Part shown: positions 11,122 through 33,678 of the stretch, one piece after another
Layout: every line of letters starts with the position of its first letter
How positions within the stretch are numbered: the stretch's first letter is position 1
Assembly: GCA_963666055.2 (NCBI GenBank)
Contig: CAXWPH010000002.1
Coordinates: forward strand, 128,001 to 192,000
Direction of reading: 5' to 3'
Length of the DNA: 64,000 bases
DNA from: Acidobacteriota bacterium
GTDB lineage: Bacteria; Acidobacteriota; UBA890; WLXD01
Position numbers and translations under genes: made by a program
The notes under the pieces: model-generated
What the model was told of the DNA's origin: nothing
Databases searched by the model: none
Seen by the model: the letters and a program-made list of their open reading frames with translations, nothing else

Positions 11122-11460
11122 ATGGGCAAGAAGGGCTATCTGGGGGAGTTTGAGCACATCGTCTTGTTGGCGCTAGTGCGTCTCGGCGGTGAGGCCGCTG
11201 GCCGAGCCATCTACGAGGAGATCGACCGGCTGGCCAGCACTTCGGTGGCCATCACGGCGGTCTATGTGACCCTTTCGCGGCTCGAAAAGAAGAGCTATGT
11301 CTCCGCGAAGCTCTCCGCGCCCACCCCCGTACGCGGCGGGCGAGCCACCAAGAGCTTTCGGATCGAGGCCGCCGGCCTGGCGGCGCTGCAGCGCTCACGC
11401 CAACAGCTCGAACGGTTCTGGGATGGGGTCGAGATCGGCTCCGAGGCCGAAGGTCGATGA
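11122..11460 (+). CDS. PadR-family transcriptional regulator
   Basis: LGEFEHIVLLALVRL...AVYVTLSRLEKK...RGGRA motifs. Confidence 0.92.
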   Translation: MGKKGYLGEFEHIVLLALVRLGGEAAGRAIYEEIDRLASTSVAITAVYVTLSRLEKKSYVSAKLSAPTPVRGGRATKSFRIEAAGLAALQRSRQQLERFWDGVEIGSEAEGR

Positions 11461-13262
11461 TGCCGCCGGTGTGGGCTGGTTGCCTGAGGGTCTTGTTGCC
11501 GCCGAGACTGCGCTCCGCGGTGATGCGGGATACCTGCACGACGTTCGAGAACCTCGAGGCGCGCCTCGGGCGTCGAGCCGCGCTGCGATGGCTGCGCAGC
11601 CAGGTGCGTGGCGCCGTCGGGCCCTCCCTGCGACATCGGCTCGAATCGGGCGCTGTACCGATGCGACATATCAGGTGCGCCGTGACCAGCCTGGGCGCGG
11701 ATGTTCGCCAGGCGGTGCGCGGTGCAGTGCATCAGCCGGGCTTCAGCGTTGCAGTCGTGCTCACCCTCGGTCTGGGGATTGGCGGCACCGTCGCCATCTT
11801 CAGTGTTGTCGACGCGGTGTTACTGCGCCCGCTGCCGTATCTGGACGCCGAACGGCTTGTTCGGGTCTGGGAGTCAAATGCCATGCTCGGATTCCTCGAA
11901 GATGGCCCATCGCCGGCCAATTTCCTCGACTGGGAAGCGCGCAACGAGGTGTTCGATGGCATTGCGGCGTGGTGGCCGGAGACCGCCATATACAAGTCCG
12001 CCGACCGCGCCGAACAGCTGGAGGTAGCGCATGTTTCTGGCGATTTCTTCCGCCTTCTAGGCACCGAGCCGCTGCTCGGCCGCCTGCTCTCGCCCGACGA
12101 TGCGGTCGGCTCGTGGTACGACAACAGCGGCAATCACTACGGCGCCGAGCCGCTGATCGCGGTGAGCCACCAGTTCTGGAGCTCCCGCCTCGGGGCTGAT
12201 CCACAGGCCGTTGGGCGAGTCATCGAGGTGAATCGTGTGCTGTGGCGGATCGTCGGCGTGATGCCGGCGAGCTTCGCCCTACCCAGGGCGGATATCGACC
12301 TGTGGAACTCTTGGGATCTCGGGGCGCGCGCCCGATCGACCGCCGGCCAGCCTTCGCGTGACTCGCGGTTTCTTGGTGTGGTCGCGCGCCTCCGTGAAGG
12401 ATTGCACATGTCGGCAGCCCAGCTACGGCTGGACGCTCTTGCAGCCGCGCTCGCCACCGAATATCCGGCCACCAACGCCGGTTGGGGTATCCGCGTTACG
12501 CCGCTCAGCGGTCAACTGATCGACCCGGCCCGGCGGCCGCTCGGGGTGCTGTCCGGTGCTGTCGGACTTCTTTTGTTGACGGCTTGCGCCAACGTTGCGG
12601 GATTGCTGTTGGCGCGGTCCACGGCGCGTCGTGGCGTCGGTGTAGTAGGTGACGTTCGCCACCACGACTTGCGCCAGGGGCCACAGCCCGAGATTTTCCT
12701 TCCCTACGCCCAGAACCCGTATCCAGCGCTCAACGTGGTGTTGCGGACCCGTCCGGGTGAGGCGCCCAGTATCGCCGCGATCGAGGCGCTGGTGACGGAG
12801 ATCAATCCCGATCAACCCGTGCACAGCGTGGTGGCGATGCGCGAGCTGGTCGCTGCCACGCTGGCACGGCAACGCTTTGCCGCCACGCTGCTGATCGTCT
12901 TCGCTGGCATCGCGCTGCTGCTGACCACCGTCGGGACCTACGGGGTCGTCGCCTGGTCGGTGAGCCGTCGCGTGCGCGAGCTGGGTATCCGCTCGGCGCT
13001 CGGCGCACGCTCCTCGGAGGTGCGCGTGATGGTCGTCCGCGAGGGCCTGGGTCTTGGCATGATGGGTGTGCTTATGGGTCTCGGTGCCTCGCTGTTGCTC
13101 ATCCGGTCGCTGGACGGATTGCTGTATGAAGTGCGCAGTGACGACGCTGCGACCCGCTTCATTGTGGGTGCGGGACTGCTCGTGGTCACCGCCGCCGCGA
13201 GCTACTTGCCGGCGCGGCGTGCCTCGGCGGTGGAACCGACCGAGGCCTTGCGGTCCGAGTAG
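11457..13262 (+). pseudogene. ADOP-type ABC permease with a large in-frame internal deletion
   Basis: 601 aa versus about 890 aa for its two paralogues. CANVAGLLLARSTARR is joined directly to GVGVVGDVRH at about 12632. Confidence 0.8.
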
Positions 13263-13991: not shown

Positions 13992-16658
13992 CTACTCGCC
14001 GCGTAGTGACACCGCCGGATCGATCGAGGCCGCTCGTCGCGCCGGCAGCACCGAAGCCACAACAGCGGCGACCAAGAGACAGGCGACGACGGCGAGATAG
14101 GTGGTGGGCTCCGTCGGACTCACGCCGAACAGTAGTGCCGCGATCCATCGTGACGTGATGATGGCGAGCAACAGGCCAATCACCAGCCCACCTCCGACCA
14201 TCCTGCTGCTCTGGCCAAGCACCATGCGCACCACATCGCTGCTGCTGGCCCCGAGCGCCATCCGTACGCCGACTTCGTGCTGTCGCTGCGACACCAGGTA
14301 ACTGAGCACCCCGTACACCCCGAGAGCTGCCAGAAACAGAGCAATGAGCGAGAAGATCCCCAGGATTGTCGACGCGAAGCGCTGGCGCGACACCGAATTC
14401 TCCAGCGTCGACGTCATCGTGTCGATGTTGTAGACGGCGAGCTCCCTGTCCAGCGACCAGATACCCGAGCGCACCGACGCAACCATGTCGAGCGGGTCGC
14501 CGTTGGTGCGCACCATCAGAGTGACTACTCCGAACGCCGGCGCTTGTAGCAGGTTCACGTACATCGCCGGGGGCGCGTCGCGATCCAGTCCCAGCGTTCT
14601 TTCGTTCTCGATCACGCCGAGGACGCGGCGTGGTATCCCCGCCCACGGTAGCTCGAGCTGGTGCTCGAGTGGCTCGAGTCCGTCGAAGTAGCGCTCTCGG
14701 GCGGCGCGGTTGATAAGCACCACGGGCTCGCTCTGCGCATCGTCGGTGGCATCCATCAGTCGACCGTGGAGAAGCGTTGCACCGACGGTGTCGAAGTAGG
14801 TCGGAGTCACCAGGCGTAAGGTGATCTCACCCTGCCCCGCGTTGTAGGGGATGCCGACGATCCCGAAGCTGTTGGTGAAGCCAGCCTGGAGTGGGTGGTT
14901 CGAGGCAAGCGCGGCCGCGCGCACGCCCGGCAGTGCCTGTACGCGCTCCAGCAGCGAACCGTAGAAGTTGCGTCGTTCCGGCCAGCTGGGCCAATTCTGG
15001 AAATCGCGCGGATAGCGGGAGTCGGGAAGCTGGAAGTCGGCTCGGAGCACGTTTGCGGCGCGGAACCCGGGGTCGACTCCCTGGAGATTCCACAGCGTTC
15101 CGATGAGTAACGCGGCAGCGACCAGCAGCACCACCGCCAGAGCGGTCTGTCCCGCAACCAAGCAGCGGCGCATGAACAGCTTCGACACGGCCGCCGCTTC
15201 GGCCTGCGAGCGTCCCTCCTTGAGGGCGCTCTGGACGTCGATCCGGCGTGCTTGGAGCGTCGGCAGCAACCCGCAACCGATGCCGATGAGCGCACTTGTC
15301 ACGGCCGCAAACAGCAACACCCGGGAGTCGATGCCGACGATCGCCTGACCGAGCAACTGCGGCGGTGCCAACGCTAGGAGCGCGCCCAAGCCGACGTTCG
15401 AGAGCACCCCGCCAGCCAGCAGTGCCAAGCCGGTCAGCAGCAACCCCTCGGTCAGGAAACGCCGTGCCAGACGCGCATCGCTGGCCCCGAGTGCCACGTA
15501 GACGGCGGTCTCCTGGGCGCGGGCGGCTCCTCGTGCCAGCAACAAGTTGGCGACGTTGGCGCAAGCGATCGCCAACACGGTCGTCACAGCCGCAAACAGC
15601 AGCCACAATGTCGTCTCGGCGCCGCCACGTCGATAGTCGGTCAGCGGCTCGACGAAGACACCGCGATTGGCGTTCTCCGGGTAGCTGGCCTCCAGATCTG
15701 CGGCAATCGACTCGAGCTCGTCGGCAGCGTTCGCAAACGATGATGCGGCGGCCAGTCGCCCCAGCACTGTCACGTCGTGTCGGGCGCGTGCCGAGTTGGT
15801 TGAGTCGCGCTGCAACGGTATCCACAGGTCGTAGTCGAGGTCGGGAAAATCCACACCGGGTGGAAGGACGCCGACGATCGTATGACTTCGATCGTTGAGC
15901 TCGATCGACGTGCCGATCACCTCCGGTGCGGCGGCGAACGCGTCCTGCCAGAAGGCGTGGGTGAGGAGCGCAACCGGCTCCCCGCCGGGGACGTCCTCGG
16001 CCGCCGTGATCGCTCGCCCGAGGGCAGGGGCCACACCGAGCACCCTCAAGAGGTCCGCGCCCGCCGTGACTACTTTGAGCCGCCGTGGCTCGCCACCGGC
16101 TCGGGTCAGATTGAGGTTGCCGGTGGCGTACATCGCCATGCCGTCGAAGGCGCGGCTACGCTCTCGGAAATCCAAGAAATCATGTACCGACGCCTGCTCG
16201 CGCACCGTTCCTGTGGCGCGGTCGTTTTCCCAGATCATCGCTAGCCGGGCAGCGTCTTCGTAGGGAAGCGGGCGCAGCAGCACGCCGTTGACGACACTGA
16301 AGATAGCGGTGGTCGTACCGATGCCGAGCGCCAGCGTGAGCACAATCACGGCGCTCAGGCCCGGCTGCCTGGTTAACGATCGGCCTGCCATACGTAGGTC
16401 TTGCCAGAGATGGTCGACCACCATGCTCCATTCCTCCCGCTCGATTCGTTGCAGCCCCAGCCGATGGCAGTCTTCGCGCACCTGCGCCCGATCGCCGAAC
16501 CTTTGCATCACATCGTGACGCGCTTCTTCTTCGGTCAGCCCGCATTGCACGAGCTCCGCGACGCGCCCGTCGATGTGGAAGTCGAGCTCGTCGTCGATAT
16601 CGGACCGCAGCACTCGGCGTGGGAACAGACGGCGCCAGACATCGCGCCAATCACGCAC
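13992..16658 (-). CDS. ADOP-type duplicated MacB/FtsX ABC permease
   Basis: N-terminal DIDDELDFHI prefix, WQDLR, LALGIGTTTAIFSVVNGVLL, RQHEVGVRMALGA and RRAASIDPAVSLR motifs. Confidence 0.93.
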   Translation of the reverse strand: MRDWRDVWRRLFPRRVLRSDIDDELDFHIDGRVAELVQCGLTEEEARHDVMQRFGDRAQVREDCHRLGLQRIEREEWSMVVDHLWQDLRMAGRSLTRQPGLSAVIVLTLALGIGTTTAIFSVVNGVLLRPLPYEDAARLAMIWENDRATGTVREQASVHDFLDFRERSRAFDGMAMYATGNLNLTRAGGEPRRLKVVTAGADLLRVLGVAPALGRAITAAEDVPGGEPVALLTHAFWQDAFAAAPEVIGTSIELNDRSHTIVGVLPPGVDFPDLDYDLWIPLQRDSTNSARARHDVTVLGRLAAASSFANAADELESIAADLEASYPENANRGVFVEPLTDYRRGGAETTLWLLFAAVTTVLAIACANVANLLLARGAARAQETAVYVALGASDARLARRFLTEGLLLTGLALLAGGVLSNVGLGALLALAPPQLLGQAIVGIDSRVLLFAAVTSALIGIGCGLLPTLQARRIDVQSALKEGRSQAEAAAVSKLFMRRCLVAGQTALAVVLLVAAALLIGTLWNLQGVDPGFRAANVLRADFQLPDSRYPRDFQNWPSWPERRNFYGSLLERVQALPGVRAAALASNHPLQAGFTNSFGIVGIPYNAGQGEITLRLVTPTYFDTVGATLLHGRLMDATDDAQSEPVVLINRAARERYFDGLEPLEHQLELPWAGIPRRVLGVIENERTLGLDRDAPPAMYVNLLQAPAFGVVTLMVRTNGDPLDMVASVRSGIWSLDRELAVYNIDTMTSTLENSVSRQRFASTILGIFSLIALFLAALGVYGVLSYLVSQRQHEVGVRMALGASSSDVVRMVLGQSSRMVGGGLVIGLLLAIITSRWIAALLFGVSPTEPTTYLAVVACLLVAAVVASVLPARRAASIDPAVSLRGE

Positions 16659-21822: not shown

Positions 21823-22030
21823 TCCTTGCTCCCGAAGTGCCGGCAGGTGCGCCGTAGATGAGTCCCAGAGACCTCATCGGCCTGCTCTCGAGCTCCTCTG
21901 AATCCGACTTCGACGAGACGGTCCGCCGGTACTGCCAGCCGGCTGTTGGGGTAGGCATCGTACAAGACCCTGTACCGGCGCAGGATGCGCACGTCCCTAC
22001 TAGGCTACTCGACTCAGGTAGACTCTCGTG

Positions 22031-22954
22031 ATGGCCGAAGATCGCAAGGAGCTCGTGGCGATCGTCGCGGCGAGGGAGGATGAGCTCGCGCCGCTGCGCG
22101 AGCGTGTGCTCGTTTCCGAGAAGATCAAAGATGGGCCCCGCTACTACCTACGGGGCACGCTGCGCGGAGTGCAGGTCGTGCTCGCGGTTACCGGCGACGG
22201 CAAGCGCAACGCCGATCTCGGAATCCGACGGTTGATCCAGATGTGCGCGCCGACGCGCGTCCTGGCTGTCGGGTTGGGAGGCGCGCTCTCGACAGACCTT
22301 GCGGTTGGCGACCTGGTGGTCTCCAGCGAAGTGATGGAGGGAGAACACACACTCGCCTGTCCGGATCTGCAGTGGCTGGAGGAAGCGTCGATTCATCTGG
22401 ATTATGACCTCGGGCGGCTGGTTACCGTCGACGAGATCTTGGCGACACCATCGAGCAAGTCGGAGTGGTACGGGCGGACATGGCGCGACCAGCCCGCTGC
22501 TGCCGACATGGAGTCCGCCTGCTTCGCCAGAGTGGCCGTAGCCTACAACCTGCCATACCTGATCGCGCGGGCTATCAGCGACGCTGCCGACGAGGTGCTA
22601 CCAGAGTTCCTCGAGGACTGCCGCGCGCAGGACGGCAGCATCGACAAGCGTCAGGTGTTTTGGAAGACGCTCTGGCGACCACGCTCGTGGGGCAACATCG
22701 TACGCTTGCGCTCGCGCATGCGGCGGTGCGCTAGCACGCTGGCCGATTTCGCCGAAGGGATTGGTTGCTGCGTTAGCCTAGCTGCGTTCCCCTCACTGGG
22801 CGCGTTGCCAGCGTCCGCCATTGACATGCCCCGAGGTGTCAAGGACACTCGGAACCCTATGCCCTCAGTGCGGTGCGCTGGTCTTGAACGCGGCGCGCCT
22901 GCCTCTTGTGCGTCGCCGTTGCCGGCGCCGATGCCGCGTTGCGAGTACGCATGA
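22031..22954 (+). CDS. Nucleoside phosphorylase/MTA-SAH nucleosidase fold protein (HpnG-like) with a suspicious C-terminal extension
   Basis: TGDGKRNA, GLGGALS..LAVGDLVV, AADMESA and RAISDAADEVLP motifs. The last about 60 aa look non-homologous. Confidence 0.75.
   Translation: MAEDRKELVAIVAAREDELAPLRERVLVSEKIKDGPRYYLRGTLRGVQVVLAVTGDGKRNADLGIRRLIQMCAPTRVLAVGLGGALSTDLAVGDLVVSSEVMEGEHTLACPDLQWLEEASIHLDYDLGRLVTVDEILATPSSKSEWYGRTWRDQPAAADMESACFARVAVAYNLPYLIARAISDAADEVLPEFLEDCRAQDGSIDKRQVFWKTLWRPRSWGNIVRLRSRMRRCASTLADFAEGIGCCVSLAAFPSLGALPASAIDMPRGVKDTRNPMPSVRCAGLERGAPASCASPLPAPMPRCEYA
22821..22849 (+). promoter_or_regulatory. Sigma70-like promoter with an overlapping palindrome, upstream of the mevalonate operon
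   Basis: TTGACA (22821-22826), a 17-bp spacer, then GACACT (22844-22849). TTGACA-N10-TGTCAA forms a palindrome. Confidence 0.5.
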
Positions 22955-23997
22955 GCAGTACCGACTCACCGGCCGCCAAGCCACCGGCCGAGCGCGACCG
23001 CAAAGCCGAGCACATCCAGCTGGCGCTCGAAGAGCGTATGCAGCACGGCAGTCGCGGCTTCGACGCTTGGCGGCTCGAGCATTGCGCCCTTCCCGAGCTC
23101 GACCTGGCCGAGGTCGACCTCAGCACCGAATTCCTCGGCAAGCAGCTGGCGGCGCCGCTCCTTATCTCCTGCATGACCGGTGGCACCGCTGACGCGGCCC
23201 GAATCAACCGCAACTTGGCCATCGGCGCCGAGCGGGCCGGTGTTGCGGTTGGCGTGGGGTCGCAGCGCAAGGCGCTGGAGGATCCTACGCTCCAAGCCAC
23301 CTTCCAGGTTCGTGAGTACGCTCCCACGGTCCCCCTGCTGGCCAATCTAGGGGCGGTGCAATTGAACTGCGGGTACGGCGTCGCCGAGTGCCGGGCGGCC
23401 GTTCATATGATCGATGCCGACGCTCTCGTGTTGCACCTGAACCCTCTGCAGGAGGCGATTCAGCCCGAGGGCGATGTCAACTTCGCCAACCTGTTGCCGA
23501 AGATCGGCGCGATTGTTGGTCAACTCGAGGTACCGGTCATCGTCAAGGAGATCGGCATGGGCATATCGCTGTCGGTGGCCGAGCGCCTCGCTGAAGCCGG
23601 CGTCCGTATCATCGACACTGCGGGGCATGGGGGCACCAACTGGGCGCGCATCGAAGCGCAGCGTGCCGACGACCTCGAGCTCGGTGCGACGTTCGCCGAG
23701 TGGGGAATTCCAACGCCCGACAGCATCCGCGCCGTCGCCAGCGTGCCGGGAGTCACCGTCATTGGCAGCGGCGGGGTCCGTACTGGAATCGACGTGGCCA
23801 AGGCGGTAGCGCTCGGCGCTGACATGGTCGGCCTGGCGTATCCGTTCCTCAAAGCGGCGCTGGAGTCAGCCGCTGCCGTCGTGGCGCGGATCGACCGTAC
23901 CTTGACGGAGCTCAGGGTGTCGATGTTCTGCGCCGGCATCCGTACAGTGGCCGATCTGCGTGCCGCAAGTCTGATCGAGCGAGCGACTCGGCGATGA
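22951..23997 (+). CDS. fni: Type 2 isopentenyl-diphosphate delta-isomerase (FMN)
   Basis: RKAEHI, APLLISCMTGG, GVGSQR, HLNPLQEAIQPEGD, GGTNW and EWGIPT motifs. Confidence 0.96.
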   Translation: MSSTDSPAAKPPAERDRKAEHIQLALEERMQHGSRGFDAWRLEHCALPELDLAEVDLSTEFLGKQLAAPLLISCMTGGTADAARINRNLAIGAERAGVAVGVGSQRKALEDPTLQATFQVREYAPTVPLLANLGAVQLNCGYGVAECRAAVHMIDADALVLHLNPLQEAIQPEGDVNFANLLPKIGAIVGQLEVPVIVKEIGMGISLSVAERLAEAGVRIIDTAGHGGTNWARIEAQRADDLELGATFAEWGIPTPDSIRAVASVPGVTVIGSGGVRTGIDVAKAVALGADMVGLAYPFLKAALESAAAVVARIDRTLTELRVSMFCAGIRTVADLRAASLIERATRR

Positions 23998-25247
23998 CTG
24001 ACGCTGCCGAGCCGGTCGACCAGGGCACCCTCGTAGACGAGATCGTAGCCGGCACCCGGCGCTTCCATCACCTGCCGTCCGAGCTCGGCGCCGCTGAGGC
24101 TGCGGCCATTCGACGACAGGCGCTCGAGCGCCTGGCCGGAGTAAATCTGACACATACCGGCAAGTACTCATTCGACGCCGCGCGCGCCGCCGACAGCCAT
24201 TGCGAGAATCTGATCGGTGTGACGCAGGTGCCGGTCGGTGTAGCAGGGCCACTACTCGTGCGGGGTGATTATATCGACGGTGAGGTCTACGTCCCTCTGG
24301 CTACGACGGAGGGAGCGCTCGTCGCCAGCATTAACCGGGGCTGTGCGGCCATCCGCGCGGCCGGCGGGGCCGCCGTGTACGTGGAGGACGTCGGCATGAC
24401 CCGGGCGCCGGTGTTTCGCTCCAGCGGGCTGGCGCAGACACGTGAGTTCCTCCGCTGGGTTACCGACAACGAGGATGAGATCCGCTCCGTGGCAGAGGGC
24501 ACGAGCCGCTTCCTGCAGCTGGTGGATATCCGCCCCTATGCTTTCGGTACCACGATCTTCCTGCGCTTCAGGTTTCGCTCGGGCGATGCCATGGGAATGA
24601 ACATGGCAACCATCGCCTGCGATCAGCTAGTGCGCGAGTTGATCGAGCCGGCGACCGGGGTACCCTGCGTTGCTCTTTCCGGAAACTACTGTACCGACAA
24701 GAAACCCGCGGCGATCAACTTCCAGGAAGGCCGCGGCAAGCGCATACACGCGCAGGTCAGACTCGACGCCGATGTGCTGGCGCGCCTGAAGACGAGCGCG
24801 GCCGAGCTGCTCGAGGTGCAGTATCGCAAGAACCTGCTGGGCTCGATTGCTGCCGGTTCGATAGGTTTCAATGCCCACGTCGCCAACGTTCTCGCGGCGG
24901 TGTTTCTCGCTACTGGACAGGATCCGGCGCATGTAGTGGAAGGGTCGATGGGAATCACCTCTATCGAGCCTGGCGACGAGGGTGGCGTGGTGGCATCGAT
25001 GTACCTGCCTGCTGTTCCGCTGGCGGCGATCGGCGGTGGTACTGCGCTCGACACACAACGCGAGGCGCTTGCTGTGCTCGGCGTTGCTGCAGAGCCGGAC
25101 CGGCCTGGTGTCGCGGTGCTGCGATTAGCCGAGATCCTCGGCGCCGCCGTCCTCGCAGGCGAGCTGTCGTTGCTGGCCGCTCTTACCTCTCAGGACCTCG
25201 CCGGCGCCCACAAGCGGCTGGGGCGGCGCGCCCGGCCCGGCAGCTAG
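23994..25247 (+). CDS. hmgA: Class I (archaeal-like, NADPH) HMG-CoA reductase
   Basis: ENLIG, PLATTEGALVASINRG, MTRAPVF, GDAMGMNM, SGNYCTDKKP, ATGQDPAHVVE and a C-terminal catalytic His (AHKRLGR). Confidence 0.96.
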   Translation: MTDAAEPVDQGTLVDEIVAGTRRFHHLPSELGAAEAAAIRRQALERLAGVNLTHTGKYSFDAARAADSHCENLIGVTQVPVGVAGPLLVRGDYIDGEVYVPLATTEGALVASINRGCAAIRAAGGAAVYVEDVGMTRAPVFRSSGLAQTREFLRWVTDNEDEIRSVAEGTSRFLQLVDIRPYAFGTTIFLRFRFRSGDAMGMNMATIACDQLVRELIEPATGVPCVALSGNYCTDKKPAAINFQEGRGKRIHAQVRLDADVLARLKTSAAELLEVQYRKNLLGSIAAGSIGFNAHVANVLAAVFLATGQDPAHVVEGSMGITSIEPGDEGGVVASMYLPAVPLAAIGGGTALDTQREALAVLGVAAEPDRPGVAVLRLAEILGAAVLAGELSLLAALTSQDLAGAHKRLGRRARPGS

Positions 25248-25258
25248 ACGGTCGCCTG

Positions 25259-26377
25259 ATGGAAGCGGCGCGGTTGCCCGAAGGGCGCTTGCTGACGCGC
25301 GTCTCGACGCCTGGAAAGCTCATCCTCATGGGCGAACATGCGGTCGTCTACGGTCGGCCGGCGCTGGTGGCGGCCACTAGCCTGCGCCTACGGGTCTACC
25401 TATACCGCGCACAGCGGGCCGGCGTGGAAGTGGAGTTGCCGGAGCTCCAGTTCCAAAACCACGTTTCTTGGCAAGAGATCTGGCGCTATGCGAGCCGAAT
25501 GCGGCAGCGGTGGGACCGCTACGACACGAGCCTGACGCCGGAGGTGTTCGCTCGCCTTCAGGACGACCGCCCCGACCGGTTGGTGCTGCTGGCACTGGGC
25601 GAGGCAATCACGGCGCTCGGTGAGGATCCCGGCGCGAAGGACCATCCGCTGAGCGCGCTGCGGCTTCGGGTGGACTCGGCGGTCCCAATGGAGGTCGGCT
25701 TTGGGAGCTCCGCCGCCACCGCCGTGGCAGTGGTAACAGCGGTTTGTGCGCTCTCTGGTAAGGCGGAGAGGTGGTCACTGATTGGGCCGATCGTGGGCGA
25801 GGTGGAGCGCCGGCAGCATGGCGCGCCGTCTGGGGTGGATGTCGCGGCCGTGTTTCACGGCGGTGTGTTGCGCGCTCGCCGCGGCGGCGAAGAGCTATTG
25901 ATCGAGCCGCTGGCGGCGCGCCCTGACACCCTGCAGCGGCTGCGGGTGTTCGACACGGGTCGCTCGGCCGAGCCGACCGGCGCGGTGGTCGCGGCAGTAC
26001 GGGCGCAACACGACCGCCACCCAGCCAGCTTCGAGGCGTCGCTGGACGCTGCCGAATCCGCAACCCGGGCCTTCCAGGACGCGGTTACCGCATCAGCTGA
26101 CCAGATCGACCTGGTGCCACCGATCCGCGATGCTCAGCGCTACCTGGAGTCTCTCGGTGTGGTGCCCGAGCCAGTATGCGACGCCGTCCGCGCTGTCGAA
26201 GCTCTGGGCGGCGCCGCCAAGATCTCCGGTTCGGGTTCGCTCGCGGGGCCAGGGGCCGGCTCTTTGTTGGTATTGTTGCCTGCTGGGATCGAGAATCTCC
26301 CAGAGCCGCTGGCGAGGCTTCCGGAGCACGAAGTGTCGCTGGGCGCGGAGGGTGTGCGCGTAGAGGTGGCGTCATGA
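25259..26377 (+). CDS. mvk: Mevalonate kinase
   Basis: PGKLILMGEHAVVYG, GHMP loop PMEVGFGSSAA, HGAPSGVD and AKISGSG. Confidence 0.92.
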   Translation: MEAARLPEGRLLTRVSTPGKLILMGEHAVVYGRPALVAATSLRLRVYLYRAQRAGVEVELPELQFQNHVSWQEIWRYASRMRQRWDRYDTSLTPEVFARLQDDRPDRLVLLALGEAITALGEDPGAKDHPLSALRLRVDSAVPMEVGFGSSAATAVAVVTAVCALSGKAERWSLIGPIVGEVERRQHGAPSGVDVAAVFHGGVLRARRGGEELLIEPLAARPDTLQRLRVFDTGRSAEPTGAVVAAVRAQHDRHPASFEASLDAAESATRAFQDAVTASADQIDLVPPIRDAQRYLESLGVVPEPVCDAVRAVEALGGAAKISGSGSLAGPGAGSLLVLLPAGIENLPEPLARLPEHEVSLGAEGVRVEVAS

Positions 26378-27399
26378 GCCGCAGCGCCACCGTCGAAGCA
26401 CCCTCCAATATCGCGTTTGTGAAGTACTGGGGTGCCGCTGACCTGGAGAAGGCCATCCCGCTCAACGCTTCGATCTCGATGTCGTTGCGGGCGTGCGTCA
26501 CACGGACGAGCGTCGAGACGCTCGCGGCCGGCGCCGACGACCAGATCTGGATGCGCGTCGACGGCCAATGGCGTCGCGCCGAAGGAGCGTTCCGGCATCG
26601 CGCAGCGGCACATCTGGAAGGTCTGCGGCGTTGGGCCAAAGTCGACGTGGGCTTTCGGGTCGCTACCGAGAACAGCTTTCCTGCCGCCGCCGGTATCGCC
26701 TCGTCGGCTTCCGGCTTCGCCGCCCTCACCCTGGCGGTGCTGGCGGCGCTCGAGCGGGAGCCGGCAGGTGATGAGCTATCGAATTTGGCGCGGTTGTCTG
26801 GCTCAGGCTCCGCGTCGCGGTCGGTTTTCGGCGGCTACGTGCAGTGGCCGCACGGCGACGAGGCAGACCCGTGGCGCGCCGCACCGCTGGCGACGGCCTC
26901 GCATTGGGACCTGCGCGACGTAATCGCGATTGTGCAAACCGGTCCCAAGGCGGTGTCGTCTCTCGAGGGGCACGCCCGGGCCCCCACCAGCCCCCATTTC
27001 GCACGCCGGCAGGAGCTCATCCCGTCGCGTCTTCAACGGGTGCGCGACGCCATCGAGGCGCGCGACCTGGACCAACTCGGTCCGGTCGTCGAGGAAGACG
27101 CGATTGAGCTCCACCTGGTAGCGATGTCCTCGCAGCCTCCGATCTTCTACTGGCAGCCGGCGACGCTTCGCGTGCTGCACCACGTTCGCACCCTGCGGAG
27201 CGGTGGAACGTCGGCGTGGGCAACAATGGACGCCGGAGCTAACGTGCATGTGATTTGCTCCGCCGACGACGAGGCAGACGTCGCCGCCGGGTTGGAAGCG
27301 CTCGATGGTGTCCAGAGTGTGATCCGCGACGGCGTGGGCTCGGGACCACGGACCCTGCCGGTATCGCTGCTCGATGCTCTGGATCGAGCGCAGCCATGA
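26374..27399 (+). CDS. mvaD: MVD-family decarboxylase (probably phosphomevalonate decarboxylase)
   Basis: NIAFVKYWG, NSFPAAAGIASSASGFAAL, GSGSASRS and TMDAGANVHVI motifs. ATGA overlap with mvk. Confidence 0.93.
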   Translation: MSRSATVEAPSNIAFVKYWGAADLEKAIPLNASISMSLRACVTRTSVETLAAGADDQIWMRVDGQWRRAEGAFRHRAAAHLEGLRRWAKVDVGFRVATENSFPAAAGIASSASGFAALTLAVLAALEREPAGDELSNLARLSGSGSASRSVFGGYVQWPHGDEADPWRAAPLATASHWDLRDVIAIVQTGPKAVSSLEGHARAPTSPHFARRQELIPSRLQRVRDAIEARDLDQLGPVVEEDAIELHLVAMSSQPPIFYWQPATLRVLHHVRTLRSGGTSAWATMDAGANVHVICSADDEADVAAGLEALDGVQSVIRDGVGSGPRTLPVSLLDALDRAQP

Positions 27400-28196
27400 A
27401 CGACCTGGTGGTAGTCAAGCTCGGTGGCAGCTTGATCACGAACAAGCGCCGCCATCGAACGGTGAGGCGGGCTGAGCTTTCGCGACTCGCCGGCGAGATC
27501 GCGGCGCTCACCCGCCGCTTTGGATTCCCGATGCTGTTAGGGCACGGTAGTGGGTCCTTTGGGCACGTGGCGGCAGCGGAGTCAGGCGTTCACGACGGGA
27601 TGGCCGGGCGTCGTGCGCGGGTCGGTGTGTCGCAGACGCAGGCTGCAGCTGCAGAGCTGCACGCGATCGTGATGAGCGCTCTGCGCGATGCCGGTGTGGC
27701 TGCCTACTCGGTGGCGCCGTCGAGCGCTATTGTCGCCAGAGGCCCCGGTCTTCGGCCGAGCGTGCACCTGGAGCCGGTGCTCCGAGCGCTCGACAGTGGG
27801 CTGCTACCCGTTACGTATGGCGACATCGTCATGGACCGGCAACGTGGCTGCTCGATTTGCTCGACCGAAATGGCGCTGCTGGCGTTCGTTCGCTCGCTAC
27901 GCTCGTCAAATCGGCGTGTCTCCGACGCCATCTGGCTCGGAGACACCGACGGCATTCTGGATGCGGCTGGGGTGAGCGTTACTCGCGTCCGCTTGCGAGA
28001 CGCCAGGCGCGTCCGCCGCCTGGTGAGTGGCGCGGCCGCGACCGACGTGACCGGCGGCATGCGCCATCGGTTCGAGGCGGCGTTGGCGCTGGCCCGCATT
28101 GGCGTACGGTCCTATCTGCTCGATGGCCGTCGACCGGGCATCCTGCGACGTGCGCTGCGGGGCACCGCGGTGCCGGGGACAATCGTCGAGCGTTGA
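27396..28196 (+). CDS. ipk: Isopentenyl phosphate kinase
   Basis: VVKLGGSLITNK, HGSGSFGH (IPK signature His), PVTYGD, ICSTE and DVTGGM motifs. Confidence 0.92.
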   Translation: MNDLVVVKLGGSLITNKRRHRTVRRAELSRLAGEIAALTRRFGFPMLLGHGSGSFGHVAAAESGVHDGMAGRRARVGVSQTQAAAAELHAIVMSALRDAGVAAYSVAPSSAIVARGPGLRPSVHLEPVLRALDSGLLPVTYGDIVMDRQRGCSICSTEMALLAFVRSLRSSNRRVSDAIWLGDTDGILDAAGVSVTRVRLRDARRVRRLVSGAAATDVTGGMRHRFEAALALARIGVRSYLLDGRRPGILRRALRGTAVPGTIVER

Positions 28197-28276: not shown

Positions 28277-29197
28277 ATGGACCGCATCGAAGACCTTCTC
28301 GAGAAGACCAGCCGCACGTTCGCGCTATCGATCCCGTTGCTGCCGGAGCCGACCCGCCGCGAGCTTGGCATCGCCTACCTGCTGTTCCGCATTGCGGACA
28401 CCTTCGAGGACGCGTCGCAATGGGACCGACAGCAGCGCATCGATGCCCTCGAAGAGTTCATGAGCCTGGTTCGAGATCCGGACGAGCAGCGCGCCGCCGA
28501 GCTGGGACGTAGGTGGGCCGCCTCCGTACCGATTGACCATCCCGGCTATCTCGAGCTACTCGGCGAATCCGCAACCGTGATCCGGGAATACCAGCGTCTG
28601 CGACCTGACGCACGGGAGATCATCCGTGAGCACACGTTGCGGACCGTTGCTGGCATGTCCGGATTCGTCAAGCGCTCTGTCGATGGCGTGCTCAAGCTCG
28701 AGTCTCTCGCTGACTTGCGCGAGTACTGTTACGTGGTTGCCGGTATCGTCGGTGAGCTCAGCACTGATCTGTTCCTCCTCGAGCGCCCCCAGCTGGCGTC
28801 GTCGATCGAGTTCTTGCGACAGCGCGCTGCGCGGTTTGGCGAGGCGCTGCAACTGGTCAACATCCTCAAGGATGCCGCCACCGACCGGCGTGAGGGTCGG
28901 CGTTACCTGCCTGCAGCGTTGAAGCGCAAGGAGATCTTCCGGTTGGCCCGCGAAGACCTCCGAGTAGCAGCCCATTACACCAACGCACTGCAGGCGGCGG
29001 GTGCGCCGCGCGGCATCGTCGCGTTCTGCGCGCTACCTACACGGCTGGCCGTCGTCGCCCTCGACATCGTCGAGCGGTGCGGGCCCGGCGCGAAGATCTC
29101 ACGCCAAGACGTTGCCGACATCGTCGAGGCCCTGAACCTAGATCTCGACGTCGGTGCTCCCGCGGTGGCGATTCCAGCAACCGCGAAACCGACGTGA
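28277..29197 (+). CDS. Squalene/phytoene synthase family, single-enzyme squalene synthase type
   Basis: TSRTFALSI, YLLFRIADTFED, YCYVVAGIVG and LQLVNILKD...D..EGR.YLP motifs. Confidence 0.9.
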   Translation: MDRIEDLLEKTSRTFALSIPLLPEPTRRELGIAYLLFRIADTFEDASQWDRQQRIDALEEFMSLVRDPDEQRAAELGRRWAASVPIDHPGYLELLGESATVIREYQRLRPDAREIIREHTLRTVAGMSGFVKRSVDGVLKLESLADLREYCYVVAGIVGELSTDLFLLERPQLASSIEFLRQRAARFGEALQLVNILKDAATDRREGRRYLPAALKRKEIFRLAREDLRVAAHYTNALQAAGAPRGIVAFCALPTRLAVVALDIVERCGPGAKISRQDVADIVEALNLDLDVGAPAVAIPATAKPT

Positions 29198-29226: not shown

Positions 29227-30048
29227 TCACTTTTCGGCACCTTCGGGGTTAGCTCTCTTGGCGCGGTCGATCCAGGCGTCGGCGTCCGGATGGCCCCGTT
29301 GCTGCCATTCCCGGGCTCGATCCATAGTCCGCCGATAGGCGTCGCGGCTTGCCGCGGCGTCGTCGACTTCGGCGTAGGCCTCGGCTAGCGCGAGGAGGTT
29401 GGGGGGGTACTCGGGGTAGAGCTCGACTGCGCGTCGCGCCTGCTCCAGGCCCTCGTCCGCGTCTCCGGGACCGGTGGGCCAGCCGGGCGCTTGCACCAGC
29501 ATTTGCGACAACACGCGCCGAGGTCCCGCGTAGTCGAGACGTTCGTGCCCGGCGATGGCAGCACGGAGCTCGCGTTCCATCGTGCGTAGCCCGTCCGAAG
29601 CCGTGGCGCGACGCTGGTTGGCTTGTACGCCGACGGCGATCGCCAGCCAGTAGTGGCAGTCCGGGTTCGTTGGCTCGCGCCTTCGGCACCACTGGGCCGT
29701 TTGCACTGCCTCGGTGGCCTTGTCCTTACGAGCCTGCGGATCGTCCAAATGCTCCCCGAGCCAGGTCTGTGCCCTCACGGCACCGATGATTGCCAGTGCG
29801 CTCGACGGACGGGCGATGGCGGATCGGATCCAGAGGGCCTCGGCCTGACGCACCGCGTCGACCTTGGGGCGTAGCCCGAACGCTTCCTCGGCGGCGGTAG
29901 CCAGACGGGCAGCCTCCTCCTCGTCGATGCGTTCCGGATCGACGCGGCCGAGCGCCGAGCTCGTGTCGAGCGGCTGGAGCGCAGCGACACACGCGGACGA
30001 AGCGAGAGCTGCGGCTGCCAGTAAGGCGGCGGATCGACGAAGGCTCAT
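29227..30048 (-). CDS. TPR/TatT-like lipoprotein (BstC-like)
   Basis: Lipobox LASSA-C and a helical body with CHYWLAIAVG, DYAGPRRVL and QAPGWPTGPGD. Confidence 0.75.
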   Translation of the reverse strand: MSLRRSAALLAAAALASSACVAALQPLDTSSALGRVDPERIDEEEAARLATAAEEAFGLRPKVDAVRQAEALWIRSAIARPSSALAIIGAVRAQTWLGEHLDDPQARKDKATEAVQTAQWCRRREPTNPDCHYWLAIAVGVQANQRRATASDGLRTMERELRAAIAGHERLDYAGPRRVLSQMLVQAPGWPTGPGDADEGLEQARRAVELYPEYPPNLLALAEAYAEVDDAAASRDAYRRTMDRAREWQQRGHPDADAWIDRAKRANPEGAEK

Positions 30049-30938
30049 CGAGCCGCCGAGTACGCCGCCCGGGCAAGGTCCAGCGCCTCGGCGTCCAGGG
30101 CTTCGAAGCGCTCTAGTCGCATGGTTTCGAGCACGTCAGCGAAGCTCGCCGACTGGTGGATGCCGAGCAGCCCGTGGACTAACTGCCGACGCACCGGCTC
30201 GTCGACGCGGTCGCCCACGACGACGACGAGCCAGGCCAAGAGAGGCGGTGACGTCGCCACCACCTCGAGCGACTCCGCGCCCGGAAACGAAGCCAACGCG
30301 GCAGTCTGGTTGCCATCGAGAAGTACGGCAACTTCCTCGCCGGCGGCCACACGCCGTATGCCGGCAAGGACCCGCCGTGTGAACTTGACGGAAAGCGAAT
30401 CCGGCAGCTCCCCCCAATGCGCCAGTGCCGGCCCGCGTACGAAACCGGGTGCGTATGCCGGAATGCCTAGTAGCTCCCAGCCGGAGAGCGAGGCGGGCCC
30501 GGTGACCGCTCCGGCGAAAGCCACCAGGCTCCAGCGCTCGGTGGCGCTCCCGGACGCCTGTACCGCCTGCACCACCGCCGTGAGCACCAGCTCCTGCTCG
30601 TACTTCAGATATAGCGGTAGTGGCACCAACGCCAGCGACGTGGCGTGGTCGCGTAGACGGCCTACCCCGGCTTCCTCGCTCGGATGGTATTCGGCCGTCA
30701 AGGTCCCGGTCGGCCACCCTGAGGCGTCCGAGACCATCGCTGCGAAGTCGTTCATCGTCGGCTGCGCCTGCTCGGTGTTGCTCGGATACCCTGGCGCGCA
30801 GGCCACCAGCCGCAGAGTCTCCAGGTCGGCGGATACGCCAGCCTGACTCCCACCGCCTGCCGTCGTCGCAGCTGCCGTCGTCGCACAAAGCGCCACCGCG
30901 AAGAGAAGCTTGTTCATCGTCGGCGCAGAATCGTTCAT
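30045..30938 (-). CDS. Periplasmic PhnD/phosphonate-binding-like protein (BstB-like)
   Basis: Signal peptide, CAPGYP and SBP-like alpha/beta pattern. Coupled by a 4-bp overlap to the lipoprotein. Confidence 0.65.
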   Translation of the reverse strand: MNDSAPTMNKLLFAVALCATTAAATTAGGGSQAGVSADLETLRLVACAPGYPSNTEQAQPTMNDFAAMVSDASGWPTGTLTAEYHPSEEAGVGRLRDHATSLALVPLPLYLKYEQELVLTAVVQAVQASGSATERWSLVAFAGAVTGPASLSGWELLGIPAYAPGFVRGPALAHWGELPDSLSVKFTRRVLAGIRRVAAGEEVAVLLDGNQTAALASFPGAESLEVVATSPPLLAWLVVVVGDRVDEPVRRQLVHGLLGIHQSASFADVLETMRLERFEALDAEALDLARAAYSAAR

Positions 30939-30984
30939 CGTGGGGAGGGTTGTCAGTATTCTTCGAAAGAATACCTGCCACCTG

Positions 30985-33678
30985 TCAACGGCGCGCGATC
31001 CCGCTCACGATCAACAGGTTCGGCAGCACGATCAAGGCGGCGACAGTGCAAGCGCCCACCCCTAGCAGCAGTACGACCCCAAGGCTCGCCATGCCGCGGT
31101 GTGTAGCAAACACGAGGCTTCCGAATCCCACCATGGTCGTAAGCGAAGCGATGAGGATCGCCCGCCCGGTATGCGAAACGACCGTCATGATGCCGGCGCC
31201 GCCCTCTAGTCGCAGTCGGTGGACGATGTGTACTCCGGCATCGATGCCGACTCCCAGGACGATCGGCACCGCCACCAGGTTGGCGAAATTAAACGACAGA
31301 CCGAGCGCCCACATGAGTCCGAGCATCCATACCGTCCCGAAGAAAACCGGGACGAGGGCGAGAGCCGTGTGCCGCGCGTTGCGCAGATCCAGCAGCAGCA
31401 CCAGGAACACGACCAACGCGGCGCTCGCGAATGCTAGCCCGAACCCCGAGGTGATCAAGGCAGAGTGGGTTTCGAAGAGCACCGGAAAGCCGATGGCGTC
31501 GTTGGCGACGCGGCGCGACGCGAAGTTGAACTGTCGCAGGAAGCGGGTGTCATAAATATCGCCTGCCGGGAACAGATAGCCAACGTATCGGTCGTCCTCG
31601 GTGATGAATCGATCGACGATGTCTGAAGGCAAGGATGCTCGGGTCGGGAGCGGCACGCCGGCGGCGTCGCGCAGCTGCTGTAGGACGCTGAACGCCTCGA
31701 GGCGCAGGGCCTCCTGTGCCTCGGCCCACTCGGCGATCCGCTCGCGGCTCGCCGCGATCGTTAGCTCGATGGCTCTTGCGGTCACCTGACGGGCCTCTTC
31801 CAAGGCTCCGGACACCCCTCCCAGCCCGGCAACGAAAGCGTCGTCGGCGGCGATGGCCAAGGCAGACTCTAGTCGCGACAGCGAGTCACTCAGGCGGCGG
31901 CCGTCGAACGCCGCCTCGCCCACCTCGATGACTTCCAGAGTCCGGCGGAGGCGCGCCGCGGCGGCCTCCGACGCCAACGGTTGATCGGGCAGGAATGCGA
32001 GTACCGATTCGAACCGGCGGATGCTGGCCTCGCTCTCGGCGCGCCGACGTAGCGCGCGGAGCTGTTCCAGATCGTCGGCAACGACGAGGTTGAAGTCGTG
32101 GCTGAGCGCCGACTCGTCGTTGATGATCTGCAGATAGCGGATTGACTCGGAGCCTGCCGGGAGAAGCTCTAACAGGCTCGATTCCAGCTTCACGCGGCTC
32201 GCTGCGAGCCCGGCGATCGCGGTCAGGCCGATCGCCAGCGCGACGACTAGGCTCGGTGACGCGCAAACCCAACGGGCTGCCCGATCGTCCCAGATCTGGT
32301 CGACGGCGGCAGGTGCGGCGGCGTTGTCGTCTTCGCGGCTGCCGCGCAACAACAGCAGCGCCGGTAGCACCAGCAGGGCGGCAAGCAGGCAGAGCAGCAC
32401 GCCGACGCTGGTGACCAGGCCCAGCTGGGAAAAACCACGGAAGTCCATGAGCAGCAGACAGGCAAAGACCGCCGAGGTGGTGAACGCCGACGCGACGACT
32501 GCGGCACTTGTCTTTCGAAGCGCGGCGCGCACCGCCTCCCGTCGCCCTTTGTGCTGCCGTTCGAGCTCGTACTGCGATAGGGGGTGCACTGCGTAGTCGA
32601 TACCCATGCCGACGAGAATGGGGATCAGGGCCGCGGTGATGATGTTGAGCGACCCAATCTCGAGCTGCACCGCGCCGATCGACCAAATCACTCCGGCCGC
32701 CCGGGTCGCCAAACCGAGCAGAGCGTGGCGCCGCCGGCGGAACACCAGCAACGAGATTCCGAGTACGCCGACGATAGCGATCAACGAAGTGCGGCGGGTG
32801 TCTCGTCCTATGGCGTTCATTTCTTCCACGGCCATGGCGACAGGACCGGTGAGTCCGTAGCGAACGCCTGGATGCTCCGACAATACGGAGGTGACGGCCA
32901 CGCGGACGCTATCCACCAGCGTTCGCTGCGCTTCCAGGCTGCTATCCAGGTTCGCGGGGCTGACCAGTACGAACAAAACGCGCTCATCACTGGTCGACAG
33001 GTAGCCATCAGCGGTCAGCGATCCGCGCCGCCCGCTGTCGATCAGCCTCAGCGGCGCCTGCTTCAGCCGATCGACGAACCCATGAGGGTCGCTGAGGAAG
33101 TCGCGCTCGGCGTCGACGAGCGCGAGGAGCCGGGTGGCTGCTACGGCAGCATCGTCCGACCGCAAGACGCTGCCGGATTCGAGTGAATCCTCGACGCCAG
33201 TGGCAATGCGTACGTTCAGGTTGGCCCAGCTAGTCAGGGTCAGCGTGCCATCGACAGCAAGCAGCCCCTGCAACATCTCGAACGCCTGCTCGACCATGTC
33301 CGCCGGCGCCAAGGCAAGCGCATGATCGGCAAGCCATTCCAAGTCGATGCGGTAGAACACGCTACGTACCTGCGAGTCTGCCTGTAGGCGCTCGGCGATC
33401 TCTCGCGCCGTGGTCTCCAGCTCTTCAACCGATGCGCCGCTCGCGCTTGCCTCGAGCGCGACAATGAGCGGCTCAGCGCTGGCGAACTGGGAGCGCAGCG
33501 AGTTCCATCGCGCCTGGTCCACGTCGTCTTGTGGCACCAGCTCCTGTCGCGAGGTCAGGAACTCGATTCCCGTTCCCAGCCAAATGGAGATAGCGCACAG
33601 TGCCACAGCGATGGTCAGCACGGCGCGTGGATGGTCCAGAACCAACGATTCGGCGCGCTTGAGCACAGGGCGTATCAT
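30985..33678 (-). CDS. RND/MMPL lipid transporter (HpnN/BstA-like)
   Basis: 897 aa with two TM blocks carrying ILVGMGIDYAVH and LGVGIDAGVHIVHR, plus GLTGP and TTMVGFGSL. Confidence 0.92.
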   Translation of the reverse strand: MIRPVLKRAESLVLDHPRAVLTIAVALCAISIWLGTGIEFLTSRQELVPQDDVDQARWNSLRSQFASAEPLIVALEASASGASVEELETTAREIAERLQADSQVRSVFYRIDLEWLADHALALAPADMVEQAFEMLQGLLAVDGTLTLTSWANLNVRIATGVEDSLESGSVLRSDDAAVAATRLLALVDAERDFLSDPHGFVDRLKQAPLRLIDSGRRGSLTADGYLSTSDERVLFVLVSPANLDSSLEAQRTLVDSVRVAVTSVLSEHPGVRYGLTGPVAMAVEEMNAIGRDTRRTSLIAIVGVLGISLLVFRRRRHALLGLATRAAGVIWSIGAVQLEIGSLNIITAALIPILVGMGIDYAVHPLSQYELERQHKGRREAVRAALRKTSAAVVASAFTTSAVFACLLLMDFRGFSQLGLVTSVGVLLCLLAALLVLPALLLLRGSREDDNAAAPAAVDQIWDDRAARWVCASPSLVVALAIGLTAIAGLAASRVKLESSLLELLPAGSESIRYLQIINDESALSHDFNLVVADDLEQLRALRRRAESEASIRRFESVLAFLPDQPLASEAAAARLRRTLEVIEVGEAAFDGRRLSDSLSRLESALAIAADDAFVAGLGGVSGALEEARQVTARAIELTIAASRERIAEWAEAQEALRLEAFSVLQQLRDAAGVPLPTRASLPSDIVDRFITEDDRYVGYLFPAGDIYDTRFLRQFNFASRRVANDAIGFPVLFETHSALITSGFGLAFASAALVVFLVLLLDLRNARHTALALVPVFFGTVWMLGLMWALGLSFNFANLVAVPIVLGVGIDAGVHIVHRLRLEGGAGIMTVVSHTGRAILIASLTTMVGFGSLVFATHRGMASLGVVLLLGVGACTVAALIVLPNLLIVSGIARR

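Follow-up and report, generated by a model that had tools for sequence, protein, structure and literature searches.

Sequence comparison identifies three adjacent genes in the window, the whole 64,000-nt stretch of Acidobacteriota DNA analysed here, as encoding distant homologues of BstA, BstB and BstC of Methylococcus capsulatus. The locus that holds them is likely a hopanoid cluster without its former cyclase, and both the trio and the neighbouring predicted squalene synthase are under purifying selection, their function kept. We tentatively read the trio as an inner-to-outer-membrane shuttle, a former hopanoid exporter that may now carry squalene or a simple acyclic derivative, a proposal to which we give slightly less than an even chance.

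In agreement with the original prediction, down to the positions, the trio consists of three co-oriented ORFs on the minus strand of G000, the genome carrying the window (95.7% (~96%) complete, assembly not closed). The first encodes an 897-aa BstA/HpnN-like MMPL-type RND transporter (30985..33678, ATG at 33678), called by Pfam (MMPL, 4e-33), NCBIfam and phmmer and displaying 11 peaks in its hydropathy profile. It is followed by a 297-aa BstB-like periplasmic binding protein of PF12974 fold (30045..30938, alternative start 30917; PF12974 match 6e-8) with a predicted signal peptide, and by a 273-aa BstC/TatT-like TPR lipoprotein (29227..30048), single-copy in G000, whose ORF overlaps the binding-protein stop by 4 nt. 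The lipoprotein Cys20 is common to 41 of 47 aligned homologues, and the QAPGWP motif (29476..29493, minus strand, residues 186–191), in which P188, W190 and P191 are invariant, takes the place of the lid loop of BstC (residues 175–184). The binding protein had been noted to lack ABC partners; indeed, no ABC ATPase was found near the trio, the sole Walker A/signature motifs of the window being at ~58.3–58.6 kb, and, unlike in the phosphonate ABC importer PhnCDE, there are no adjacent ATPase or permease genes. A promoter/terminator scan of the locus gave no signal above chance.

BstABC has been described as a putative sterol transporter (Zhai et al. 2024, PMC10942540; PDB 7T1M, 7T1S), and Acidobacteria, the phylum of G000, are absent from the main text of that paper. 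The similarity of the trio to known proteins exceeds chance: compared with PDB by phmmer, the binding protein matched BstB (7T1M, E=5.6e-10) and nothing else up to E=1, whereas the lipoprotein matched BstC (7T1S, E=2.3e-16) and the RND protein HpnN (6WU0, E=4e-41). BstB was also the top structural match of the binding protein (Z 25.3, rmsd 3.1, 257 aligned; next, PhnD-like, Z 21.7), and an Atlas search returned only PF12974/BstB-family clusters. Like BstABC, the trio combines an MMPL RND protein and a TatT-like lipoprotein with a PF12974 binding protein that has no ABC partners, and shares the same folds, the lid loop, the E86/E118 equivalents and isoprenoid genes nearby. Unlike in BstABC, structural identity is 21–25% and all three proteins score below the equivalog cut-offs of NCBIfam (BstA NF045600, 359 versus 1400 bits; BstB NF045601, 63 versus 350; BstC NF045602, 83 versus 350). 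The RND protein scores equally for BstA and for HpnN (TIGR03480, 366 bits against a cut-off of 752; NF052374, 223 against 1100, both below cut-off). Thus, of the proposed orthology to BstA/B/C, homology is upheld by phmmer, NCBIfam and folds, but strict orthology is not supported, since the cut-offs were missed and the RND protein ties with HpnN; it does belong with BstA/HpnN rather than among unrelated MMPL exporters. The BstC model had a single match in G000, the trio lipoprotein, in a one-way check, and its cut-off was passed by none of 71 scanned distant homologues.

HpnN is a hopanoid transporter with proposed partners HpnM/HpnS or HpnT (PDB 5KHN, 6WU0; Lawrence et al., PMC12324291). It resembles the RND protein, and the ancestral cargo was likely a hopanoid, although the partners here are BstB/BstC-like, not MlaC/MlaA- or lipocalin-like. 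Moreover, the RND protein has an Asp both in the TM4-like helix (D361-Y362) and in the TM10-like helix (D813); this second transmembrane Asp is shared with BstA (motif in PMC10942540) and missing from HpnN. The lipoprotein has the TatT/BstC fold, tying between Es_TatT 8G52 (Z 21.5) and BstC 7T1S (Z 21.4). As in the TPAT systems, a TPR lipoprotein of helical ring fold (Z 18.5 to Tp0956 3U64) is paired with a binding protein, but no TRAP P, Q or M genes are present at the locus and the lipoprotein sequence resembles BstC (E 2e-16), not 8G52 or 3U64.

The binding pockets appear to be retained. In the binding protein, E134, W136 and D208 occupy the positions of BstB E118, Y120 and N192, and cavity positions P49, M62, L107, F166 and F278 are conserved; lipoprotein E99 corresponds to BstC E86. 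Cavity residues are kept across 88 binding-protein and 80 lipoprotein sequences, and it is the BstB cavity residues, rather than a polar phosphate/phosphonate pocket, that we see in the binding protein. The serine/threonine motif that we take to characterize phosphonate binders was not seen in the binding protein. We considered the E86 position as a sterol marker and rejected it: E or D is near-universal there (74 of 80 homologues) regardless of cyclase, and the position is therefore not sterol-specific. By contrast with BstC, the R132 position is Asn in all eight cyclase-less family members. Docking of the binding protein onto the lipoprotein received weak model support: the model scored 0.53 (best control 0.23) in a range, ≤0.60, that holds 18 of 157 solved complexes as passes and both of the two passing mismatches among 215, with runs agreeing in at least 89% of contacts and partner pLDDT of at least 91. 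The structure of a TatT–TatP complex has been solved, and one locus (L048) has a fused binding protein–lipoprotein ORF. In the proposed shuttle, the lipid would be extracted from the inner membrane by the proton-driven RND protein and ferried through the periplasm in the hydrophobic cavity of the bilobed binding protein, which would then dock on the TPR lipoprotein. The latter, presumably anchored in the outer membrane, would let the lipid go via its lidded tunnel.

The trio converges, across a 29-nt gap, on a plus-strand gene for a predicted single-enzyme squalene synthase (28277..29197), the sole PF00494 gene of G000, which would be the source of squalene as cargo. The family PF00494 takes in phytoene synthases too; the same synthase type is the sole PF00494 gene in cyclase-bearing G005, G008, G101 and G061. 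Upstream on the plus strand are a mevalonate-route operon (22906..28196) of type 2 IPP isomerase, HMG-CoA reductase, mevalonate kinase, (phospho)mevalonate decarboxylase and isopentenyl phosphate kinase, and an HpnG-like nucleosidase/phosphorylase (22028..22954), the left-over last hopanoid gene, which in G008 follows shc-hpnH-hpnA. Together with the synthase, these genes form the operon that the trio faces. DXR was not found in any of five family genomes. Because the synthase and the trio belong to separate convergent transcription units, their adjacency may be mere history.

No squalene or oxidosqualene cyclase was found in G000 by four genome searches. PF13249 had no match at E≤0.1, SHC and HpnH had no tblastn match, the only HpnH candidates were four radical SAM matches below cut-off, and neither squalene epoxidase nor an HpnA orthologue was found, nor orthologues of the osc, smo and sdmAB of the Methylococcus system. 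A C30 carotenoid route was likewise not found, with no CrtN/CrtI match over cut-off in five of five genomes (in G000, at most 130 bits versus 238); the one such locus that we read in G000 is an oxidoreductase pair adjoining a GcvT-like gene. Consequently, the cargo is not a self-made sterol or hopanoid. Of the squalene-derived cargo originally envisaged, the adjoining squalene synthase remains in favour, whereas products of an own cyclase are out.

Comparison with relatives suggests how this arrangement arose. G008 carries shc-hpnH-hpnA-hpnG-idi2 on one contig and the synthase and trio on another; in G005 the entire block is contiguous, but shc contains a TAG stop and hpnA is partly deleted and carries an IS481; and outgroup G101 has shc-hpnH-hpnG-idi2 plus the same RND clade. 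The SHCs of the family cluster with their counterparts from G101, G053, G057 and G075 (support 1.0). A subdivision-22 Acidobacterium was reported to have mevalonate genes, shc, hpnH and squalene synthase (Sinninghe Damste et al. 2017, PMC5462960), an unusual biosynthetic combination that G008 and G005 share; unlike there, the cyclase is gone in G000, and no transporter was described for that organism (hpnN is absent from the text of PMC5462960). A cyclase is missing from eight of the 10 family genomes that carry the binding protein (92–97% complete, two in 2 contigs), and in the rooted FastTree phylogeny the cyclase-bearing taxa are basal, implying at least two full losses, so the cyclase was likely lost at least twice in the family. 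Convincing DNA remnants of shc, hpnH or hpnA upstream of hpnG were found only in G005 (a G002 match at E=0.001 was unconvincing). Support at the relevant node of the HpnG tree is 0.40, and ancestry is argued from gene order. An export system of true BstABC orthologues for a self-made sterol or hopanoid, with the cyclase missing only from the assembly, is largely refuted: G000 is not closed and an OSC-motif cyclase occurs in six other binding-protein-carrying genomes, but the stretch upstream of hpnG where shc ancestrally lay is covered by the assembly and empty, all eight family genomes lack the cyclase, and the equivalog cut-offs are missed by far.

Among cyclase-less genus-mates, dN/dS (Nei-Gojobori) was 0.19–0.23 for the RND protein, 0.21–0.31 for the binding protein, 0.12–0.17 for the lipoprotein and 0.08–0.19 for the synthase, compared with 0.09–0.21 for the mevalonate genes. 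A slowly decaying relic of the hopanoid cluster is very improbable. The surrounding hopanoid genes are lost or broken, the binding protein has the highest dN/dS of the locus and its gene in G003 carries a 56-nt frameshifting deletion, but trio values of 0.12–0.31 hold up to a dS of 1.35, and seven of eight cyclase-less genomes, from three genera, have intact frames (the RND gene of G009 is cut by a contig end).

What is carried is a separate question. Squalene has no polar head, yet polar ligand residues persist: E99, whose BstC counterpart E86 is required for sterol binding, is kept in seven of eight cyclase-less family members, and E134, W136 and D208 in nearly all. An unrecognised hydratase, oxidase or non-homologous cyclase making a polar triterpenoid would reconcile these residues with the persisting synthase, and HpnG is strongly conserved without HpnH (dN/dS 0.05–0.15). 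We nevertheless consider such an enzyme unlikely, as no candidate converting gene is present in any cyclase-less family locus. The two weak, secreted PF13243-like proteins of G000 were rejected as squalene consumers, being single-domain, devoid of the DxDD motif and limited to the genus (two of five genomes, none in G005, G006 or G007).

The same residues could instead point to scavenged sterols, hopanoids or another polar lipid as cargo of a working shuttle, the synthase link being historical. Indeed, BstC is tolerant of cholesterol and lanosterol, and fatty acids are ligands of TatT. Furthermore, the module lies beside steroid 5-alpha-reductase-like and 3-beta-HSD-like genes in six genomes and beside EBP, SDR and DUF1295 genes in four, with no cyclase or PF00494 found in either set, and occurs with a TonB-dependent receptor and MlaE/MlaD genes at seven loci and with FadL at three. 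However, most of these loci have a different, divergent 780-aa RND protein, and G000 has no such neighbours; steroid reductase, DUF1295 and EBP homologues had no tblastn match there, and KshA was not found in five of five genomes. Scavenging or a non-isoprenoid cargo, the main alternative, which we regard as possible but rather doubtful, would also leave selection on the squalene synthase unexplained. In 301 Acidobacteriota genomes at least 90% complete, among which related genomes are not independent, the binding protein tracks squalene/phytoene synthases (PF00494 in 31 of 33 carriers versus 152 of 268 non-carriers), not cyclases (8 of 33 versus 52 of 268). Among 73 other binding-protein-carrying genomes, for which there is no completeness estimate, 17 gave no match for either a cyclase or PF00494.

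Squalene or a simple acyclic derivative remains our preferred cargo. No description of a dedicated bacterial squalene transport system was found in the literature, BstABC is known as a sterol-specific methanotroph system, and for hopanoid transport the passage through the periplasm is so far only predicted (HpnM/S/T). The new aspect is a Bst-like module surviving without a cyclase, and a Bst-like locus is accordingly no predictor of sterol production. More speculatively, with odds we put appreciably below even, Bst-like modules may be a widespread general triterpenoid shuttle of diderms, with the methanotroph sterol carrier as just one branch. In this family the module would have served hopanoids, outlived repeated cyclase loss and come to supply the outer membrane with plain squalene, a membrane modifier without rings. 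If true, such a cargo would widen what Bst-like carriers are known to move. The family offers a natural series for one transporter, with the cyclase intact (G008), decaying (G005) or gone (eight genomes), through which shifts in cargo specificity among hopanoid, sterol and acyclic lipid, as well as squalene trafficking, can be addressed.

The trio is co-oriented as originally predicted, lies on the minus strand and encodes an 897-aa RND transporter (window 30985–33678; Pfam MMPL), a 297-aa binding protein, B (30045–30938; Pfam Phosphonate-bd), and a 273-aa lipoprotein, C (29227–30048; weak Pfam TPR match). The proposed orthology with BstA, BstB and BstC of the methanotroph sterol transporter (PMC10942540) is partly supported. 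In a PDB sequence search, BstB (7T1M) is the sole match of B and BstC (7T1S) the best match of C, but all NCBIfam scores are far under the cut-offs (RND: HpnN 366 bits, BstA 359 bits; B: BstB 63 bits; C: BstC 83 bits). The AlphaFold model of B (pLDDT 90.7) matches 7T1M with Z of 25.3 (rmsd 3.1, 257 residues aligned), compared with 21.7 for the next structure. The model of C (pLDDT 92.5) matches TatT (8G52; Z 21.5) and 7T1S (Z 21.4); since a generic TPR domain reaches Z of 21.0, the fold of C alone tells less than its sequence match. Close homologues carry Acidobacteriota labels. By analogy, the trio may resemble BstABC in its working, although by equivalog and sterol-gene criteria it is not a member of that system. 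Searches of the accessible literature, mostly outside subscription journals, turned up neither a Bst-like system from Acidobacteriota nor one that lacks a cyclase, and the words Bst, TatT and phosphonate do not occur in the available text of the 2026 version of a hopanoid-transport paper (PMC12324291); related work includes PMC13712982, PMC11713862, PMC5462960, PMC7306690, PMC12324236, 10.1101/2020.12.21.423902 and PMC9907078, the last citing effects that squalene itself has on membranes. An 8-bp inverted repeat between the RND stop and the B start (window 30945–30975, minus strand) is nearly kept in G002, and other members of the genus share just the first half.

Equivalents of Bst residues were mapped by eye from alignments and the residue numbering of PMC10942540. 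B retains those of BstB P34, M47, L92, E118, F150 and F262, with Trp at the Y120 and Asp at the N192 position, and C retains those of BstC E86, Y121, G128, L142, D160 and R166, together with the lid loop. The E86 position is Glu or Asp in 74 of 80 C homologues whatever their cyclase, and is therefore no marker of sterol binding. The RND protein, like BstA, has an Asp in both central helices, whereas HpnN has it in one. The BstC R132 position (residue 144 of C) is Arg in 68/80 homologues; within the family, 8/8 cyclase-less members have Asn there, G005 has Arg and G008 has Asp, which may serve as a lead for a shift in cargo. Both the phosphonate-binder motif and the rule for lipoprotein sorting belong to general background.

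In the window's genome (G000; completeness 95.7%), PF13249 at E ≤ 0.1, TIGR01787 and tblastn with a relative's SHC and HpnH all gave zero matches, CrtN/CrtI gave none above cut-off, squalene epoxidase was not found, and HpnA returned only generic matches (~30%). Single-domain squalene-cyclase-C-like proteins, secreted-looking in L001:1489–2184 and L002:484–1746, occur in several copies in the genus (G000, G002, G004), some adjoining FAD oxidoreductases. Of the 11 genomes of the family, B was detected in 10 and a cyclase in 2; B was found in 0/15 sister-family genomes. G008 has an intact shc-hpnH-hpnA-hpnG-idi2 run. The hopanoid block of G005 is contiguous with the trio, its shc interrupted by a TAG (possibly a sequencing error) and its hpnA disrupted by IS481 and an internal deletion. 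Outside the family, G101 and G053 retain shc-hpnH-(hpnA)-hpnG, which in G101 runs on into idi2; their cyclases group with those of the family, and the G101 RND falls in the sister clade. A FastTree phylogeny built from six proteins of the operon, with outside genomes as root, has G101 and G005 (the latter weakly placed, 0.46) basal, followed by G007 with G008 and then the remaining cyclase-less genera. Loss of the cyclase, at least twice, fits better than late gain.

In four pairs of cyclase-less genus-mates (dS 0.2–1.35), Nei-Gojobori dN/dS is 0.19–0.23 for RND, 0.21–0.31 for B, 0.12–0.17 for C, 0.08–0.19 for the synthase and 0.09–0.21 for mevalonate genes; one exception is a 56-nt deletion in the G003 B gene. 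The trio is convergent with an operon encoding an HpnG-like nucleosidase, IDI-2, HMG-CoA reductase, mevalonate kinase, decarboxylase, isopentenyl phosphate kinase and a squalene synthase-type protein. Searches of five family genomes gave DXR in none and HMG-CoA synthase in four; an essential housekeeping role is therefore likely for the mevalonate genes. The predicted synthase scores 91 against TIGR01559, thus under the cut-off of 287. Its type is the sole PF00494 gene in cyclase-bearing G005, G008, G101 and G061, and in G061 squalene epoxidase adjoins an OSC-motif cyclase, which makes squalene its likely product. The HpnG-like gene (window 22028–22954; 308 aa in G000 versus ~250 aa in relatives; dN/dS 0.05–0.15) is kept in 11/11 family genomes despite loss of HpnH in most; it may therefore also serve as a general nucleosidase. 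Elsewhere in the window, three MacB/FtsX-type permease genes (3876–6569, 11457–13262, 13992–16658) have no ATPase gene nearby.

Scanning genomes for B yielded 196 confirmed relatives and 80 loci. Five of these loci repeated family stretches and were left out; the other 75 come from 73 genomes, as two of them were each in the same genome as another locus. C adjoins B in 68/75 loci, with four of the seven misses at contig ends; 64 loci include an RND gene (divergent 780-aa type, 52; co-oriented 900-aa type, 9; others, 3). A cyclase match occurs in 23 of the 73 genomes (OSC motif in 6) and PF00494 in 52; neither was found in 17, completeness figures not being given, and four cyclase-positive genomes without PF00494 indicate assembly gaps. 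The C profile matched 319 clusters at E ≤ 1e-30; none of 71 distant proteins scanned (69 of 150 listed and two others) passed the BstC cut-off. An even sample of 301 genomes of the phylum includes 33 with B, 60 with a cyclase and 183 with PF00494; the unpublished G119 contributes one genome to the background tallies of cyclase and PF00494. PF00494 is present in 31/33 B-bearing genomes (22/24 outside the family) versus 152/268 others (Fisher p 1e-5) and a cyclase in 8/33 versus 52/268 (p 0.49), both p values being overstated because kin genomes are not independent.

Neighbours of B include hopanoid genes, sterol-type reductases/isomerases, TonB/Mla-like importers, FadL, and an fn3 protein with an outer-membrane barrel. 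An OSC-motif cyclase accompanies the B/C module and 780-aa RND in uncultured Acidobacteriota (L110–L113, L115 and L194:7446–10777, the last with adjacent squalene epoxidase), which are candidate sterol producers. Steroid-reductase/3-beta-HSD-like genes (L035, L065, L070, L071, L083, L085) or EBP/SDR/DUF1295 genes (L061, L067, L105, L107) adjoin modules of genomes in which neither squalene synthase nor cyclase was found, and scavenged sterols might be remodelled there. A TonB-dependent receptor and MlaE/MlaD ABC system adjoin the module with RND in L048, L049, L051, L060, L075, L100 and L106, B and C being fused in L048 (560-aa ORF). A 700-aa fn3 protein and a 1000-aa outer-membrane barrel often come after B and C (L040, L047, L068, L090, L094, L234–L244), a possible outer-membrane partner missing in the G000 family. 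In G027 (L023:12419–18966), an HpnN-like RND, FAD oxidoreductase, distant B-like protein and shc form one run; C was not detected.

Polar residues are conserved, and modules of other genomes sit among sterol-modifier and importer genes; both points would suit a scavenged or other polar lipid as cargo, a rather unlikely reading, and also a squalene derivative from an unrecognised route, which we consider improbable. Because no ring-forming enzyme was found and the synthase is conserved, the most economical reading, tentatively preferred at slightly under even chances, is squalene or a simple derivative. A predicted B–C complex scores 0.53 versus 0.23 for the best control, weak support on a scale where passes at 0.60 or under comprise 18/157 solved pairs and both passes among mismatched pairs (2/215). 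On the model of BstABC and HpnN, the RND protein would likely draw the lipid out of the inner membrane, B would probably ferry it, and C would probably take it up at the outer membrane.
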